Shown piece by piece: positions 21,790 to 39,982 of a DNA stretch of 44,356 bases; position 1 is the stretch's first letter, and every line of letters begins with the position of its first letter. The notes under the pieces were generated by a model. It saw nothing but the letters and a program-made list of their open reading frames with translations. It did not search any database and had not been told where the DNA came from. This DNA comes from a virus. The translations under genes and the position numbers were made by a program. Location: the IMG/VR virus record IMGVR_UViG_3300044466_000065, positions 1 through 44,356 of that record; one strand, given 5' to 3'.

Positions 21790-22692
21790 TTACCCGAAGA
21801 AGTTGCTGGTGCCGCCAGGAGGTGTGCCTACCGTGGTGCCAGTCGGTACGATCGGCGGAGTCCCGGCGGTGGTTCCCTGTTTACGCATCTGCTCGATGAT
21901 CTGCAGCAAAGCCGGAATACTCAGCCCGGCGCCGATGATGGCTGACGCCGTACTCGGCTGCGGCACCTTCACCTCTGACACCGCCTCGGCCCCGAACGGC
22001 TGACGGATCAGGTTGCCATAATTCAGCAGATTCTCATACGGTAACCGCTGCTCATACTCGTACCGGTTGGCATTCTCGTTCCGCTGCGCTTCCTCCTGCG
22101 CCCGGATCTGCGCGCCCACCGCGCCCGTGATCTGCCCCGGCGCCGTGAGATTCGCCTGCAACTGCGGGATGTTCTGCATCGTCTGCATCGCCTGCTGCTG
22201 AGCAGACAGATAGCCCTGGTTCGCCAAACCAGACGACACTTCTCCCGCCACGCGCTCGGCATCGCGCACCGCCTGCGCCTCCCCGATCGACTGCCTCGAG
22301 CCGCCATAGCCGCCGCTGGCAATCCCCTGGTGCCGGATGGCCGGCAGCGCCCGCGTCAGCAACTGATCGCCGATGGGTGCCACGGCCGCCGAGATCGCAT
22401 TCTTCAGGTACGGGTTCGTCGCCGGATCCCGCCCCGCTCCGAGGTTGAACTCCGCGCTCTTCGTCCCGAGTTCAGCGAGGTACTGCGCCGGGGTGGCCGC
22501 AGCGCCGGTCTGCCGCAACGCCGAGAGTTCGTCTTGATTAAAATCAGCAACCCGTGGTTCGGGACTCAGCTTCGGTCCACCCTGCTGATACAATCGCGTG
22601 CTTTCATCAACAAACTGCTTCAATGCCGGTTGTTGGAAGCTTGGGTAGTTAGTCGTTGAGGTTGCGACGTTACCGCCTGCGGATTTTCCCAT
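21790..22692 (-). CDS. Putative internal virion protein
   Basis: 300 aa; GAGGA RBS; Gln/Ala-rich with protein-like composition. Confidence 0.8.
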   Translation of the reverse strand: MGKSAGGNVATSTTNYPSFQQPALKQFVDESTRLYQQGGPKLSPEPRVADFNQDELSALRQTGAAATPAQYLAELGTKSAEFNLGAGRDPATNPYLKNAISAAVAPIGDQLLTRALPAIRHQGIASGGYGGSRQSIGEAQAVRDAERVAGEVSSGLANQGYLSAQQQAMQTMQNIPQLQANLTAPGQITGAVGAQIRAQEEAQRNENANRYEYEQRLPYENLLNYGNLIRQPFGAEAVSEVKVPQPSTASAIIGAGLSIPALLQIIEQMRKQGTTAGTPPIVPTGTTVGTPPGGTSNFFG

Positions 22693-23191
22693 TATGATTC
22701 CTCACTTCCATGATTAAGGTTACGTAAGCAGGTTCAAATCCGAGCGGGGCCAAAAGTCTGGTGAGACCTTTCCTGCCACTAGCTTCCAATCGCTCACATT
22801 GGTTCTCGCGGGCGTAAGCCTCAAGGGCCACGCGAGCGTGACCGCCCCAGTCCCGGAAGGAAATCCCCTGAAGGAGCACGATTCGCAAAACCCTCAAACA
22901 GGGGTACTCAGTACACTCGGTTAGAATCACACCAAGGAGTTCAGCCCCGTCGCCAGCCAACGCTACCCACACCTGCATTTTGTCGGCAGCGATGTACGCC
23001 TTAATCGAGCTTTCGCTTAACTCTCCGTGGCAATGTTTGAGGGCTTCGGCGAAGTAGGGCGTCAATCTCACGAACACCGCAGGCTCGATGGCCATCTCTG
23101 AATTGAGGCGCGTAACCTGGATTCGCCGGGGGGCCAACTGTTTGGCTATCGGAAGCGGCGAGATTTCTTCCAGAACTTGTTCAGTATTCAT
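22670..23191 (-). CDS. Hypothetical protein, possibly GNAT-like fold (gene X, intact copy)
   Basis: Start MNTEQVLEE at 23191; C-terminal LE.YAR..QCERLEASGRKGLTRLLAPLGF resembles an acetyltransferase fold (weak). Confidence 0.7.
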   Translation of the reverse strand: MNTEQVLEEISPLPIAKQLAPRRIQVTRLNSEMAIEPAVFVRLTPYFAEALKHCHGELSESSIKAYIAADKMQVWVALAGDGAELLGVILTECTEYPCLRVLRIVLLQGISFRDWGGHARVALEAYARENQCERLEASGRKGLTRLLAPLGFEPAYVTLIMEVRNHNGKIRRR

Positions 23192-23264
23192 GGTTAAATG
23201 AGTGAGCGGATGGATGCGGCAAACACCCATCCGCTCGACAGTCAGGAAAGGATGAGTTTCCCGA

Positions 23265-23837
23265 ATGCCTGAAGCCAATTCTATCTACCGCTACAAGACG
23301 GTTGACGATCTTATCGCAAAACACGTCCCCGATAGACAACCGGGCCAATGCTGGCTTTGGGTTGGCGCGACCAGCAAGGGATACGGCAGTTGTATCTGGC
23401 GATATAAGCCCTACAAGGCGCATCGGCTGGTGTACGAACACCTCGTCGGTGCTATTCCTGAAGGCTTGCAGCTCGATCACTTGTGCCGAAACCGCCGGTG
23501 CGTAAACCCTGCACACTTGGAACCAGTCACGATGGCGGAGAATATTCGCCGGGGCATAAACTACTGGCGCGAGAGAAAACACTGCTCGAAGGGTCATGCC
23601 TATGATGCTGCCAACACCCATATCAACGGATCTGGGGAAAGGGTCTGCCGGGAGTGTAAACGCCAGAGCTATCACTGGCAGGGCGGGATTTGGAACCGAG
23701 ACAAAACTCACTGCGTTCACGGCCATGCCCTTGATGCCGCTAACACCTACATCCAAAAAAACGGATCTCGCCACTGCCGGGAATGTCACCGCCAGTGGGA
23801 CCGCATCTATCGCGCGAAGAGGAAGCTGACGGCTTAG
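23265..23837 (+). CDS. HNH homing endonuclease (HNH_3-like), antisense to the structural operon
   Basis: CWLWVGATSKGYG...AHRLVYEHLVGAIPEGLQLDHLCRNRRCVNPAHLE plus repeated C..GH......C..C units. Confidence 0.9.
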   Translation: MPEANSIYRYKTVDDLIAKHVPDRQPGQCWLWVGATSKGYGSCIWRYKPYKAHRLVYEHLVGAIPEGLQLDHLCRNRRCVNPAHLEPVTMAENIRRGINYWRERKHCSKGHAYDAANTHINGSGERVCRECKRQSYHWQGGIWNRDKTHCVHGHALDAANTYIQKNGSRHCRECHRQWDRIYRAKRKLTA

Positions 23838-23942
23838 CTCAATCGCCATCTCAGAACTGAGCCGGGTAACTTGCAACTTGCGCGGGGCAAGCTGCTTGGC
23901 GACCACCGGAGCTTCGATGATAGGCGTTTCTTCAAGTGTCAT
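23838..23942 (-). pseudogene. Displaced 5' fragment of gene X (diverged duplicate of 23081..23191)
   Basis: MTLEETPIIEAPVVAKQLAPRKLQVTRLSSEMAIE versus MNTEQVLEEISPLPIAKQLAPRRIQVTRLNSEMAIE; ATGA-coupled to the tail fibre stop; homology ends at the HNH stop codon. Confidence 0.55.
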
Positions 23943-25645
23943 GGTGTAGCCGCCGCCGCTTCAAGTGCCTCGACTTTCGCCTTCAGTTGTTTGATGGCAA
24001 GAATGGCGTGCATTAGGCATTCATGAATGTTGACACCGAGTATTTCGACCTCCTCGGGATCGTCCGGAGAGAGCTTACCAAGGCTCTTGGATACTGTTCC
24101 CGGCAACACCTGTTCAATTTCCTGCGCGATGAAGCTTAGAACGCGCGTCCCTTCGGGCGTACCGGCGAGGCCATTGTAAGTGGCTTCGATTGGGCGCAAC
24201 TGAGCGATGATGTCCAGCCCGCCCTGAAGATCTTTCACGTCGCGCTTCACGCGCGCATCTGACGCTATTGTCCAAGCCGAAGTGGTGGGTTTTGCCGCGC
24301 TATCTGTCGATAATTGCAACTGGTAGGCAGGCCCGGCTGTACCGATACCCACATTGCCGGTGCTCTGAATGGTCACAGCACGGGTACGAGTCCCGCCAAC
24401 GTCGAAGCCGTGATTGTAGCCGTCGTAGCGCGTGCCGAAACCACCCTCGGCCCAGAGACGGGAAGCGGTGTCCCAAGCCGGCGCGGCACTGAAGGGCAAA
24501 TGGATATAGTTAGTCTGAACCTGCCCCACATTATTCAGGTTGAACGCGGCGCCTTCGATGTTGCTCAGCCAGGGCGTTTGGGAAGTGCCGGGCGGAGCGG
24601 CCCAGGAGGCGTCTTCGCGGAGGTACTTAGTGATCCCAGCGGTGGTGCCGGGAGTAGGCACGGTACCGCCACGACCGGACGCGCCGCTGGCGATCATGGG
24701 CAGTGCGTTCAAAGTAACATCCGCGGTAAGTGCGCCGCCGCCGGACAGGCCGGTCCCTGCGATCACTTGCCTCGAAGTGGGCACGCCCGCCGCCGGAGCA
24801 CCCGTGATTTTGGCATAGGCGAGCGAAGTGATCCAGGCCGGATCGGGATAACTGCCGAGGACCGACACCGCGTTGGTGACTTGAGCGGCAGTGTAGTCGC
24901 CGCTCGCTGCGATGACAGCCCCGGTCCTGGTGAACACGCTGGTGACGGCACTGGCCGGCAGGGCAGTCCAGGCTCCATCGCCTCTGAGCCAGTTACTCGC
25001 GCTGGGTGTACCTGACCCAAGACGTGCTACTGCGAAGATGCCAGAAGTGGTATCGGCAGCAGCATGAACGTGCGCCGCAGGCGTGAAAGTAGTAGGTACG
25101 CCGGTCAACTTCGAGTAAGCCAGACTCGTGATCCAGCCAGGATTGGCATACGATCCGAGAATGGAGACGGCGTTAGTCACTTGCGCGGCCGTGTAATCTC
25201 CACTCGCCGCAATGACATCTCCAATGCGCGTGAAGACGCTCGTGACTGCCCCAGCACCACCGCCGCCGGGAATCGTCACCACCGTGCGCGTGCCGTCGTC
25301 TGTGGCCGTGACGCCTGCGCCCACGAAGTTGAGGATCGTTCTCGTGGTGAGGGCAACGCCTTCGTCCTGGACGATGGTATAGCCGCCACCACCTCCTCCG
25401 CCACCGCTCATCGCGTGCCACGCGCCGGCGTAATAAACGTAGTACCCGGCCCCCGCTCCCGGGTTCCAGTCAGTGCCATCGGCGTAGGCTAGCATGCCCT
25501 CCCGCGGCTTAGCTGGTGCCACATGCCAGACCTTGTGAATAGAATCGCGGTGCCGGTTGATATCGATCTGCTGGTCCTCGGCCACGCTCCACAGCATCTT
25601 CAGCCCTTCGCGGGTATCGTCGGGGAGCGGCCGGTCTAGTGGCAT
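23939..25645 (-). CDS. Tail fibre with C-terminal intramolecular chaperone (peptidase S74) domain
   Basis: C-terminal SDARVKRDVKDL...LRPIEATY...SFIAQEIEQVLPGTV...AIKQLKAKVEALE; internal roughly 100-aa duplicated module; poly-Gly linkers. Confidence 0.88.
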   Translation of the reverse strand: MPLDRPLPDDTREGLKMLWSVAEDQQIDINRHRDSIHKVWHVAPAKPREGMLAYADGTDWNPGAGAGYYVYYAGAWHAMSGGGGGGGGYTIVQDEGVALTTRTILNFVGAGVTATDDGTRTVVTIPGGGGAGAVTSVFTRIGDVIAASGDYTAAQVTNAVSILGSYANPGWITSLAYSKLTGVPTTFTPAAHVHAAADTTSGIFAVARLGSGTPSASNWLRGDGAWTALPASAVTSVFTRTGAVIAASGDYTAAQVTNAVSVLGSYPDPAWITSLAYAKITGAPAAGVPTSRQVIAGTGLSGGGALTADVTLNALPMIASGASGRGGTVPTPGTTAGITKYLREDASWAAPPGTSQTPWLSNIEGAAFNLNNVGQVQTNYIHLPFSAAPAWDTASRLWAEGGFGTRYDGYNHGFDVGGTRTRAVTIQSTGNVGIGTAGPAYQLQLSTDSAAKPTTSAWTIASDARVKRDVKDLQGGLDIIAQLRPIEATYNGLAGTPEGTRVLSFIAQEIEQVLPGTVSKSLGKLSPDDPEEVEILGVNIHECLMHAILAIKQLKAKVEALEAAAATP

Positions 25646-39332: not shown

Positions 39333-39439
39333 GGATGCAGTATATCCTTGCCCTTTGTTTTCTGCCAGAATTAAACGAGCCGCGTGGCGTTCGAGCGCCA
39401 CCCGACTCTGACCGAATGCAATCTGTAGAGGAGATCGCA

Positions 39440-39982
39440 ATGGCTGACATCCAGTCTAAACCGCTTGCGCCATTATCCGAGAAAGACCGCGCCAAATTCC
39501 CGTCGAAAGTAGACAGGCGCTCCGATTCGGAGTGCTGGTTGTGGAAGGGTAGAGTTTCTGTCAATGGGTACGGAATGTTTCCTTGCTTTGGGAAACGCGC
39601 CATTAAAGCCCACAGAATCGCCTATTTCCTCGAGTACGGTATTGATCCTGGTTCGCTCTGCGTGTGCCACAAATGTGATCAAAGGTTGTGCGTCAATCCA
39701 AACCATCTGTTCCTTTGCACCAAGCACGAAAACGCGCTGGATGCTTCTGCCAAAGGACGGCTGAAGTGGAAAGACGATCACCTCTGGCGAAAACATCCGG
39801 AGGAGGTGCTGCACGGGGAACGTCAAGGTATGGCGAAGCTGAAGGAGACCGAGGTCGTCGAGATTCGGAAGATGTACGCCAGCGGCTTATGGCTTCAACG
39901 AGAGATCGCCGCCAAGTTCGGGGTGGCTATGAGCCGGATCTCTGCTATCGTCACCCGAAAGCACTGGAAACACATTCCATAA
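39440..39982 (+). CDS. HNH homing endonuclease (HNH_3-like) with C-terminal HTH
   Basis: GGAG RBS; ECWLWKGRVSVNGYG...KAHRIAYFLEYGIDPGSLCVCHKCDQRLCVNPNHL. Confidence 0.88.
   Translation: MADIQSKPLAPLSEKDRAKFPSKVDRRSDSECWLWKGRVSVNGYGMFPCFGKRAIKAHRIAYFLEYGIDPGSLCVCHKCDQRLCVNPNHLFLCTKHENALDASAKGRLKWKDDHLWRKHPEEVLHGERQGMAKLKETEVVEIRKMYASGLWLQREIAAKFGVAMSRISAIVTRKHWKHIP

Follow-up and report, generated by a model that had tools for sequence, protein, structure and literature searches.

Among the closest described counterparts of the locus reported here are mobile endonuclease open reading frames (ORFs) of fungal mitochondria, which bring along the end of a foreign gene, as in atp6 of Allomyces macrogynus and in atp6, atp9, cox2 and nad3 of Glomus (PMC3630166). 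Our locus lies in a viral DNA of 44,356 nucleotides (nt), positions 1 to 44,356 of IMG/VR record IMGVR_UViG_3300044466_000065 (the whole stretch is hereafter the window). In it, a free-standing gene for an HNH endonuclease stands antisense between a tail-fibre gene and a conserved gene that we call gene X, and the 5' end of gene X is present on both sides of it: as copy A, attached to the fibre gene, and as copy B, which begins the complete gene X. As in the Allomyces atp6 type, a diverged copy of a gene end appears to have arrived with an endonuclease ORF and to have joined the working gene, while a native remnant persists nearby; also as in that type, the native copy matches relatives that lack the element and the inserted copy is foreign. 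Unlike the fungal cases, however, in which the 3' end is duplicated and the ORF is in sense orientation and often fused in frame, the window shows a duplicated 5' end, an antisense ORF, a phage host and a remnant that retains a coupled start codon. From this comparison, the fungal ORFs appear to be the nearest published parallel for the product, of which the window would be a mirror image.

Among phages, the locus is comparable to the free-standing homing endonucleases of the T4 Seg and Mob groups ('intronless homing'), in that a stand-alone gene lies between conserved genes, has a patchy distribution and is found in a mosaic region. RNA hairpins are known at the 5' end of I-TevI, segB and Aeh1 mobE (PMC2988022), and there are likewise hairpins at the 5' end of the HNH gene of the window. 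Unlike the T4 genes, the window cassette runs antisense to a late operon with translational coupling, its relatives occupy four junctions, and a conserved leader brings a new start region for the downstream gene, the native start codon being left behind; in addition, homing is deduced here from sequence. For intron homing in T4, PMC2988022, citing Parker et al. 1999, documents a one-sided repair that is illegitimate and relies on microhomology. On that account, both cases would combine one homologous with one microhomology junction and entry at sites without full flanking homology, although the T4 case is experimental and concerns a group I intron, whereas the window case is natural, fixed in the population and intron-free. 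The same source cites Aeromonas phage Aeh1, in which, as described there, mobE splits nrdA into two functional pieces with no duplication. Aeh1 and the window would thus share an HNH homing endonuclease gene inside a phage gene whose function is retained; unlike nrdA in that description, gene X would have been made complete again by a 5' end that is duplicated and foreign. What is new, beyond the known invasion by endonucleases with a duplicated gene end, is a fibre-adjacent cassette family, a structured leader and an apparently protected antisense frame.

We consider it probable, from the comparisons presented below, that a cassette came, together with a foreign start of gene X, into a genome in which the fibre gene was ATGA-coupled to gene X, by homologous exchange on the right and illegitimate joining on the left. 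The ancestor would have had the fibre gene coupled to gene X through ATGA, as in seven relatives. The mobile cassette, composed of the antisense HNH gene and a leader of ~73 nt, would have been linked to the gene X start of a donor and recombined in from a related phage. The right exchange would have been homologous, inside gene X or beyond, and the left one illegitimate, joining codon 35/36 of the resident gene X (...GCGATTGAG C) to the HNH 3' end (CTAAGCC...), probably through a microhomology of a few bases. The product would be the resident fibre gene with copy A, followed by the HNH gene, its leader and a whole gene X whose 5' end is foreign. We infer that the event started with cleavage of the empty allele by the HNH enzyme.

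Gene X neighbourhoods were gathered from IMG/VR, JGI, ENA and Logan contigs (loci designated by L numbers), and eleven of them are empty, that is, without an HNH gene. In seven (L012, L016, L019, L020, L021, L022 and L023) an S74-type fibre gene is ATGA-coupled to a single intact gene X; in the remainder (L004, L010, L017 and L018) two genes, gp95 (95 amino acids) and gp119 (~119 amino acids), stand between fibre and gene X. Both genes are present in most relatives (L003-L010, L017, L018 and L024-L029) and missing from the window, L001, L002, L030 and the seven directly coupled loci; gp119 exists as two diverged types. Beyond ~555 (555-700), L012 no longer resembles any gene X homologue, probably because of a chimeric assembly end, and its junction of interest (1-460) is backed by L019, L020 and L022. 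In a DNA alignment, the window stays collinear with the empty loci along the 3' end of the fibre gene, the ATGA and copy A, as far as ...GCGATTGAG C. The breakpoint is exact, at 23838/23837, where the relatives go on as gene X (CCTGCC GTC TGG...) and the window as the complement of the HNH 3' end (CTAAGCC...); copy A ends at 23838, and the adjoining base, 23837, is the last one of the HNH stop codon TAG (23835-23837). The initial annotation had deduced from the window alone an HNH gene inserted into the 5' end of gene X, with a heterologous copy of the target and a truncated fragment left upstream, and had proposed searching HNH-less relatives for the empty site. The empty sites, the breakpoint and the origin of the two alleles (see below) all bear this out: fibre, ATGA and gene X are uninterrupted in seven loci, and these seven carry a single copy of the 5' end, when the presence of both copies in relatives without HNH would have spoken against the insertion.

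The two copies come from different alleles. They share a core of 21 codons (23900..23838 and 23146..23084) in which 46 of 63 nt (73%) and 18 of 21 amino acids are identical, with 12 of the 17 differences at codon position 3, and their heads, of 14-15 codons, look unrelated. Copy B is the best other local match of copy A in the window, with a score of 29 vs 14.3 +/- 1.1 (maximum 19) for shuffled sequences and a tblastn E of 2.7e-8; the homology claimed in the initial annotation, with about three quarters identity in the core, is thus sound. The comparison of the 5' copies that it had also called for assigns them to different allele lineages, both by heads and by cores. The head of copy A matches 35 of 39 nt in the empty sites L012, L019, L020 and L022, whose gene X starts MTIEETPIIEASPVAKQLAPRKLQ, a start of the copy-A type. 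The core of copy B, in turn, is identical at 63 of 66 nt to that of L013 and at 58 of 66 to that of L030, both of them HNH-linked, and its head, MN[ST]EQ[VA][LV]EE, is shared by the window, L001, L002, L011, L013, L030 and L031. Indeed, the MN[ST]EQ head is directly behind the HNH leader in 7/7 loci and occurs in 0/11 empty sites. Copy A has neither frameshift nor stop, keeps its ATGA-coupled ATG and an open frame, and its core peptide is identical to that of the functional alleles L001 and L016. Because the divergence is mostly at third positions, copy A is intact and the allele lineages differ, the sequences read as two functional alleles brought together, and not as a decayed in-cis duplication.

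The features of the locus are collected in Table 1; on re-reading the ORFs, the coordinates and the ATGA coupling reported in the initial annotation were all correct. The coupling consists of the overlap between the fibre stop TGA (23941..23939) and the ATG of copy A at 23942. At the other end, the stop codon of the bridging ORF, TGA at 23183..23181, starts 8 nt past 23191, where the ATG of the new gene X begins.

Table 1. Features of the HNH cassette locus (positions in the window)
Feature	Position	Strand	Basis or remarks
Tail-fibre gene, 568 amino acids	25645..23939	-	Peptidase_S74 C-terminal chaperone domain (PF13884); tail-fibre PHROGs
Copy A, resident gene X 5' end, 35 codons, MTLEETPIIEAPVVAKQLAPRKLQVTRLSSEMAIE	23942..23838	-	Collinear with empty sites
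HNH_3 gene, 190 amino acids, free-standing, antisense to the structural operon	23265..23837	+	Pfam, PHROG
Cassette leader, 73 nt, between HNH start codon and new gene X start	23192..23264	-	11-cassette alignment
Leader hairpin 1	23237..23269	-	Spans the complement of the HNH initiation codon and of its GGAAAG ribosome-binding-like motif; 99% of cells paired, 11 sequences
Leader hairpin 2	23204..23236	-	G+C-rich stem, 13-14 pairs; ends 12 nt before gene X ATG
Copy B, first 36 codons of complete gene X, MN[ST]EQ head type	23084..23191	-	Head comparison
Gene X, 173 amino acids, starts MNTEQVLEEISPLPIAKQLAPRRIQVTRLNSEMAIE; conserved podovirus gene between fibre and ejection-protein genes	22670..23191	-	
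Bridging ORF, 253 codons, from the resident gene X ATG, codon for codon opposite HNH and through the leader	23181..23942	-	

The cassette is mobile among four junctions. The antisense HNH genes of these loci belong to one family, with pairwise identities of 56-70% and star-like relationships, and the gene is present or absent at the same locus among syntenic relatives, with 11 empty loci vs loci with one or two cassettes. They are found between fibre and gene X (window, L001, L002 and L030), between fibre and gp95 (L003, L005-L009 and L024), between gp95 and gp119 (L026 and L027) and between gp119 and gene X (L013, L025, L028 and L027). Locus L027 (1911-2378 and 2824-3414), as well as L029, contains two diverged cassettes, with 60% amino acid identity, in the adjacent junctions gp95/gp119 and gp119/gene X. 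A decayed cassette occupies positions 3441-3920 of L011, with a frameshifted HNH gene and a gene X start broken by a 1-nt insertion (ATGAAATACTGA), which fits the loss phase of the homing-endonuclease life cycle, or else a poor assembly.

Comparison of occupied and empty junctions shows what is left behind on each side. Of the eight distinct left junctions, seven retain, on the left of the cassette, the downstream gene's native start codon and 0 to 105 further nt of that gene, for which the right end of the cassette supplies a new start. For instance (with ^ marking the junction), the empty L010 reads ...TAG GAAGAAACCGT ATGAC^GTATACC (...GAAGAAACCGTATGAC^GTATACC), and L005 reads ...TAG GAAGAAACCGT ATGAC^TTACGAAG (...GAAGAAACCGTATGAC^TTACGAAG, with the HNH stop) and, after the leader, a new GCAGGAG-N6-ATGAC ATACGC. 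The part kept is CAATG in L003; (A/T)TGAC(C) of gp119 in L026 and L027; ATGA plus TGGA(A/G) in L001, L002, L013 and L025; five codons of a gene X of the 'MAEA' type at the second cassette of L027; and, by far the longest, 105 nt in the window. The exception is L030 (100-200), in which the HNH and fibre genes converge and share ~24 nt at their 3' ends. There the cassette joins within the last fibre codons, and the fibre C-terminus is altered, with ...ALELAAMGSSDGI replacing ...LELAAATP. The variety of these joins points to repeated illegitimate joins on the left side. Nearly all cassettes carry AACCAT(G/A) at their right end, those at the gp95 and gp119 sites included, which looks like a relic of a ...CCATGA junction. 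A transposable element with target-site duplication was also considered and rejected, because the junction repeats range from 3-6 nt to 111 nt and are diverged, and the only protein is the HNH nuclease. With respect to the neighbouring fibre genes (window 23939-25645, L001 3988-4875, L005 1273-2694 and L010 2063-3352), their N-terminus is conserved and their C-terminal modules are swapped between an S74 chaperone type and a ...RTVQLTTT type, with lengths of 295 to 639 amino acids. The HNH cassettes adjoin this C-terminal exchange zone.

Several points weigh against the entry of the cassette as we propose it. The same product would be obtained if a fibre segment had recombined into a genome already bearing the HNH gene, with another genome as the recipient, and cutting of the empty junction by the HNH enzyme is presumed. 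The four junctions share no obvious target sequence beyond ATG or ATGAC, which argues against simple site-specific homing for every move, and the proposed microhomology, GA[G/A]C, has only 4 bases. In addition, no true parental genomes were found among the gathered loci: the nearest HNH homologue, the second one of L027, is 70% identical, and gene X is a patchwork at a 100-nt scale, in which the stretch of 100-200 nt is 97% identical to L013 and that of 400-500 nt is 100% identical to L016, an empty-site locus. Such a patchwork, with no parents to compare it with, masks the extent of co-conversion and the direction of transfer.

The first of these points leads to the alternative of a host-range module swap, in which a genome with the order fibre, HNH and gene X would have received the 3' segment of the fibre gene, together with 105 nt of gene X, from a phage lacking HNH, with no involvement of the endonuclease. 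Its product would be identical, mosaicism is pervasive in these loci, and fibre C-terminal modules are clearly exchanged in the group (S74 vs ...LTTT). Nevertheless, it needs the same illegitimate join, with no reason for it to fall exactly at the HNH stop codon, and leaves unexplained the 7/8 left junctions that contain a native start codon; we thus regard it as unlikely.

Quite unlikely, too, is that the duplication is ancestral, having been generated by a first insertion at a ...CCATGA junction that gave a long 5' duplication, with the window keeping the primitive state. On this view, the ATG ATG GA(A/G) of L001, L002, L013 and L025 would be a leftover of copy A, shortened by in-frame deletions. 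The junction GA(G/A)^CTA(A/G)GCC is indeed common to the window and these four loci, two in-frame deletions would convert ATG..ATG GCG ATT GAG into ATG ATG GAG, and the putative AACCAT(G/A) relic of CCATGA is found at cassette right ends also in the gp95 and gp119 sites. However, the shared junction amounts to only 6-7 nt, and in L013 and L025 the short junction follows gp119 and not the fibre gene. Moreover, copy A is intact, with mostly third-position differences and the core peptide of L001 and L016, and its head is of another type than the head of the linked copy B, which means that the two were not copied from a single gene. For us, the preferred explanation remains the entry of a cassette together with a foreign start of gene X.

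The HNH protein is recognised by Pfam HNH_3 (E 1.3e-14, 54 bits vs a cut-off of 24.8) and by phrog_826 (E 5e-55). Its HNH motif is N-terminal, and residues D71, H72, N81, H84 and N93 are invariant across 10 homologues; the catalytic motif is intact. Following the nuclease domain there is a Cys/His repeat (THC..GH.Y...NT.I...G.R.CR.C), present twice in the window and once in L001, L013, L025 and the first cassette of L027, which resembles the repeated zinc-finger DNA-binding modules known in phage homing endonucleases (PMC10448857). The gene is an ORF of its own on the opposite strand, outside any intron or intein, and gene X is complete downstream; an Rfam scan of 22500-24500 at E <= 1 found no intron or other RNA family, and an intron origin was dropped on that account. 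A scan for sigma-70 promoters and terminators found no promoter for HNH and a single weak terminator-like site inside it. The window contains a second HNH-like ORF (39335-39982, + strand), 27% identical to that at 23265..23837 and flanked by ORFs of the - strand; the antisense frame aligned with its codons is interrupted, as two separate antisense ORFs cover it.

Every cassette in an alignment of eleven (window, L001, L002, L003, L005, L011, L013, L025, L026, L027 and L030) has a conserved leader of 70-86 nt between the HNH start and the downstream gene. In the window the leader is unique and ends ...TCATTTAACC before the gene X ATG. It is predicted to fold into two hairpins (Table 1), with -42.1 kcal/mol (z = -5.9) on the - strand, which is the sense strand of gene X, compared with -32.9 kcal/mol (z = -2.5) on the + strand. 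Pairing is retained in 98% of cells of the alignment, vs 39-54% with slid partners; five pairs of helix 2 show compensatory changes, and about one fifth of the pairing cells are G.U, a mismatch on the other strand. This strand bias of the fold suggests that the leader acts in the late (structural) transcript.

Opposite the HNH gene and the leader, the frame that in the window is entered from copy A is open in 11/11 intact cassettes and broken only in the decayed one of L011. Codon-aligned antisense stops require TTA, CTA or TCA codons in the gene. Pooled over 11 cassettes, TTA or CTA encode none of the 116 leucines of HNH, and the three TCA codons are all within its last eight codons; in the flanking genes of the same loci, TTA or CTA account for 68 of 755 leucines (Fisher p = 5.7e-5, p-values being weakened by shared ancestry, which affects the controls equally). 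In all, stop-creating codons are about tenfold rarer in HNH than in the flanking genes, and this depletion occurs despite a lower G+C content at third codon positions (0.61 in HNH, vs 0.73 in structural genes and 0.62 in gene X). Gene X at the same loci contains 2-4 such codons in each of 10 copies, and at least 17 synonymous leucine changes are observed among the HNH cassettes, none of them to TTA or CTA. A lone open antisense frame is unremarkable, as 35% of 190-codon stretches in structural genes of the window phage are open in that frame; the pooled comparison with the matched controls is the only one that counts. Among 80 distant HNH homologues from IMG/VR, a first heuristic found the frame open in 13/19 antisense-embedded vs 7/31 co-oriented genes, with unreliable orientation calls, and a second one reclassified many loci and gave no significant difference.

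The bridging ORF begins at the abandoned native ATG in 8/11 cassettes. Its end is always from -5 to +10 nt from the downstream ATG in the 11 cassettes, although we rejected this as evidence, because the conserved ...TTTAACCATGAACAGTGA has stops in all three frames. From the open frames and the depletion of closing codons, the 253-codon ORF is probably kept translatable, which renders doubtful the view in the initial annotation that it is probably not functional. We tentatively propose, as a possibility that falls short of a favoured explanation, that translation across the insert is selected because it preserves coupling and avoids transcriptional polarity. Ribosomes leaving the upstream gene would restart at the abandoned native ATG, cross the insert and the leader, and end from -5 to +10 nt from the replacement start, being released at a gene X without a Shine-Dalgarno sequence. 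Copy A would then be an ATGA-coupled entry ramp to the stop-free antisense frame, and not debris, and the cassette as a whole would be adapted to an antisense position in coupled operons.

That the duplication is instead maintained by a functional protein, encoded by the 253-codon ORF or by copy A alone, seems very improbable. The frame is open and ATGA-coupled, gene callers annotate the ORF in public contigs and stop-creating codons are avoided, but the product matches no family, and beyond its first 35 residues the sequence is dictated by the complementary HNH codons. Besides, the ORFs of relatives start with only 2-5 native codons, indicating that the part derived from gene X is dispensable.

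An assembly chimera of two co-occurring phage strains, which the different allele lineages of the copies might suggest, can be practically discarded, because contigs that are identical or differ by at most 5 bases cover both junctions in six samples and gene order is the same in 14/14 contigs. Specifically, the arrangement is covered at 99.8-100% identity by six independently assembled contigs (L033-L037 and L039), and the arrangement is stable in at least 14 contigs from different samples, since those that encode the exact fibre protein of the window all have an identical gene order; none of these 14 is an HNH-less version of the window phage. A DNA search with the 4-kb region retrieved no match from 50,697 phage records, which thus offered no cultured relative as a reference.

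Homologues of gene X form 21 clusters. The gene showed no sequence match in Pfam, PHROG or PDB, its AlphaFold model (pLDDT 55) is too poor for a fold search, and the sole label of its distant homologues is the annotation 'putative acyltransferase'. Gene X lacks a Shine-Dalgarno sequence both in the window and at the empty sites, and its expression thus probably depends on coupling. Gene X also overlaps by 23 nt (window 22670-22692) the next gene, which encodes an ejection-protein-like product of 300 amino acids (phrog_4287). The whole block from fibre to ejection-protein gene is tightly overlapped, and this may explain why an insertion needs a duplicated junction to be tolerated.

This locus is a clear example, preserved in nature, of the way in which a selfish endonuclease gene invades a compact phage operon without homology on both sides; a start region that accompanies the element rescues the host gene. 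The presence of cassettes at four junctions beside the tail fibre, a host-range module, links the mobility of the endonuclease to the mosaicism of these modules. If the open antisense frame is indeed selected, it would represent a means, so far unrecognised, by which a mobile gene lowers its cost, and the endonuclease gene would carry a built-in limit on the harm it does to its host.

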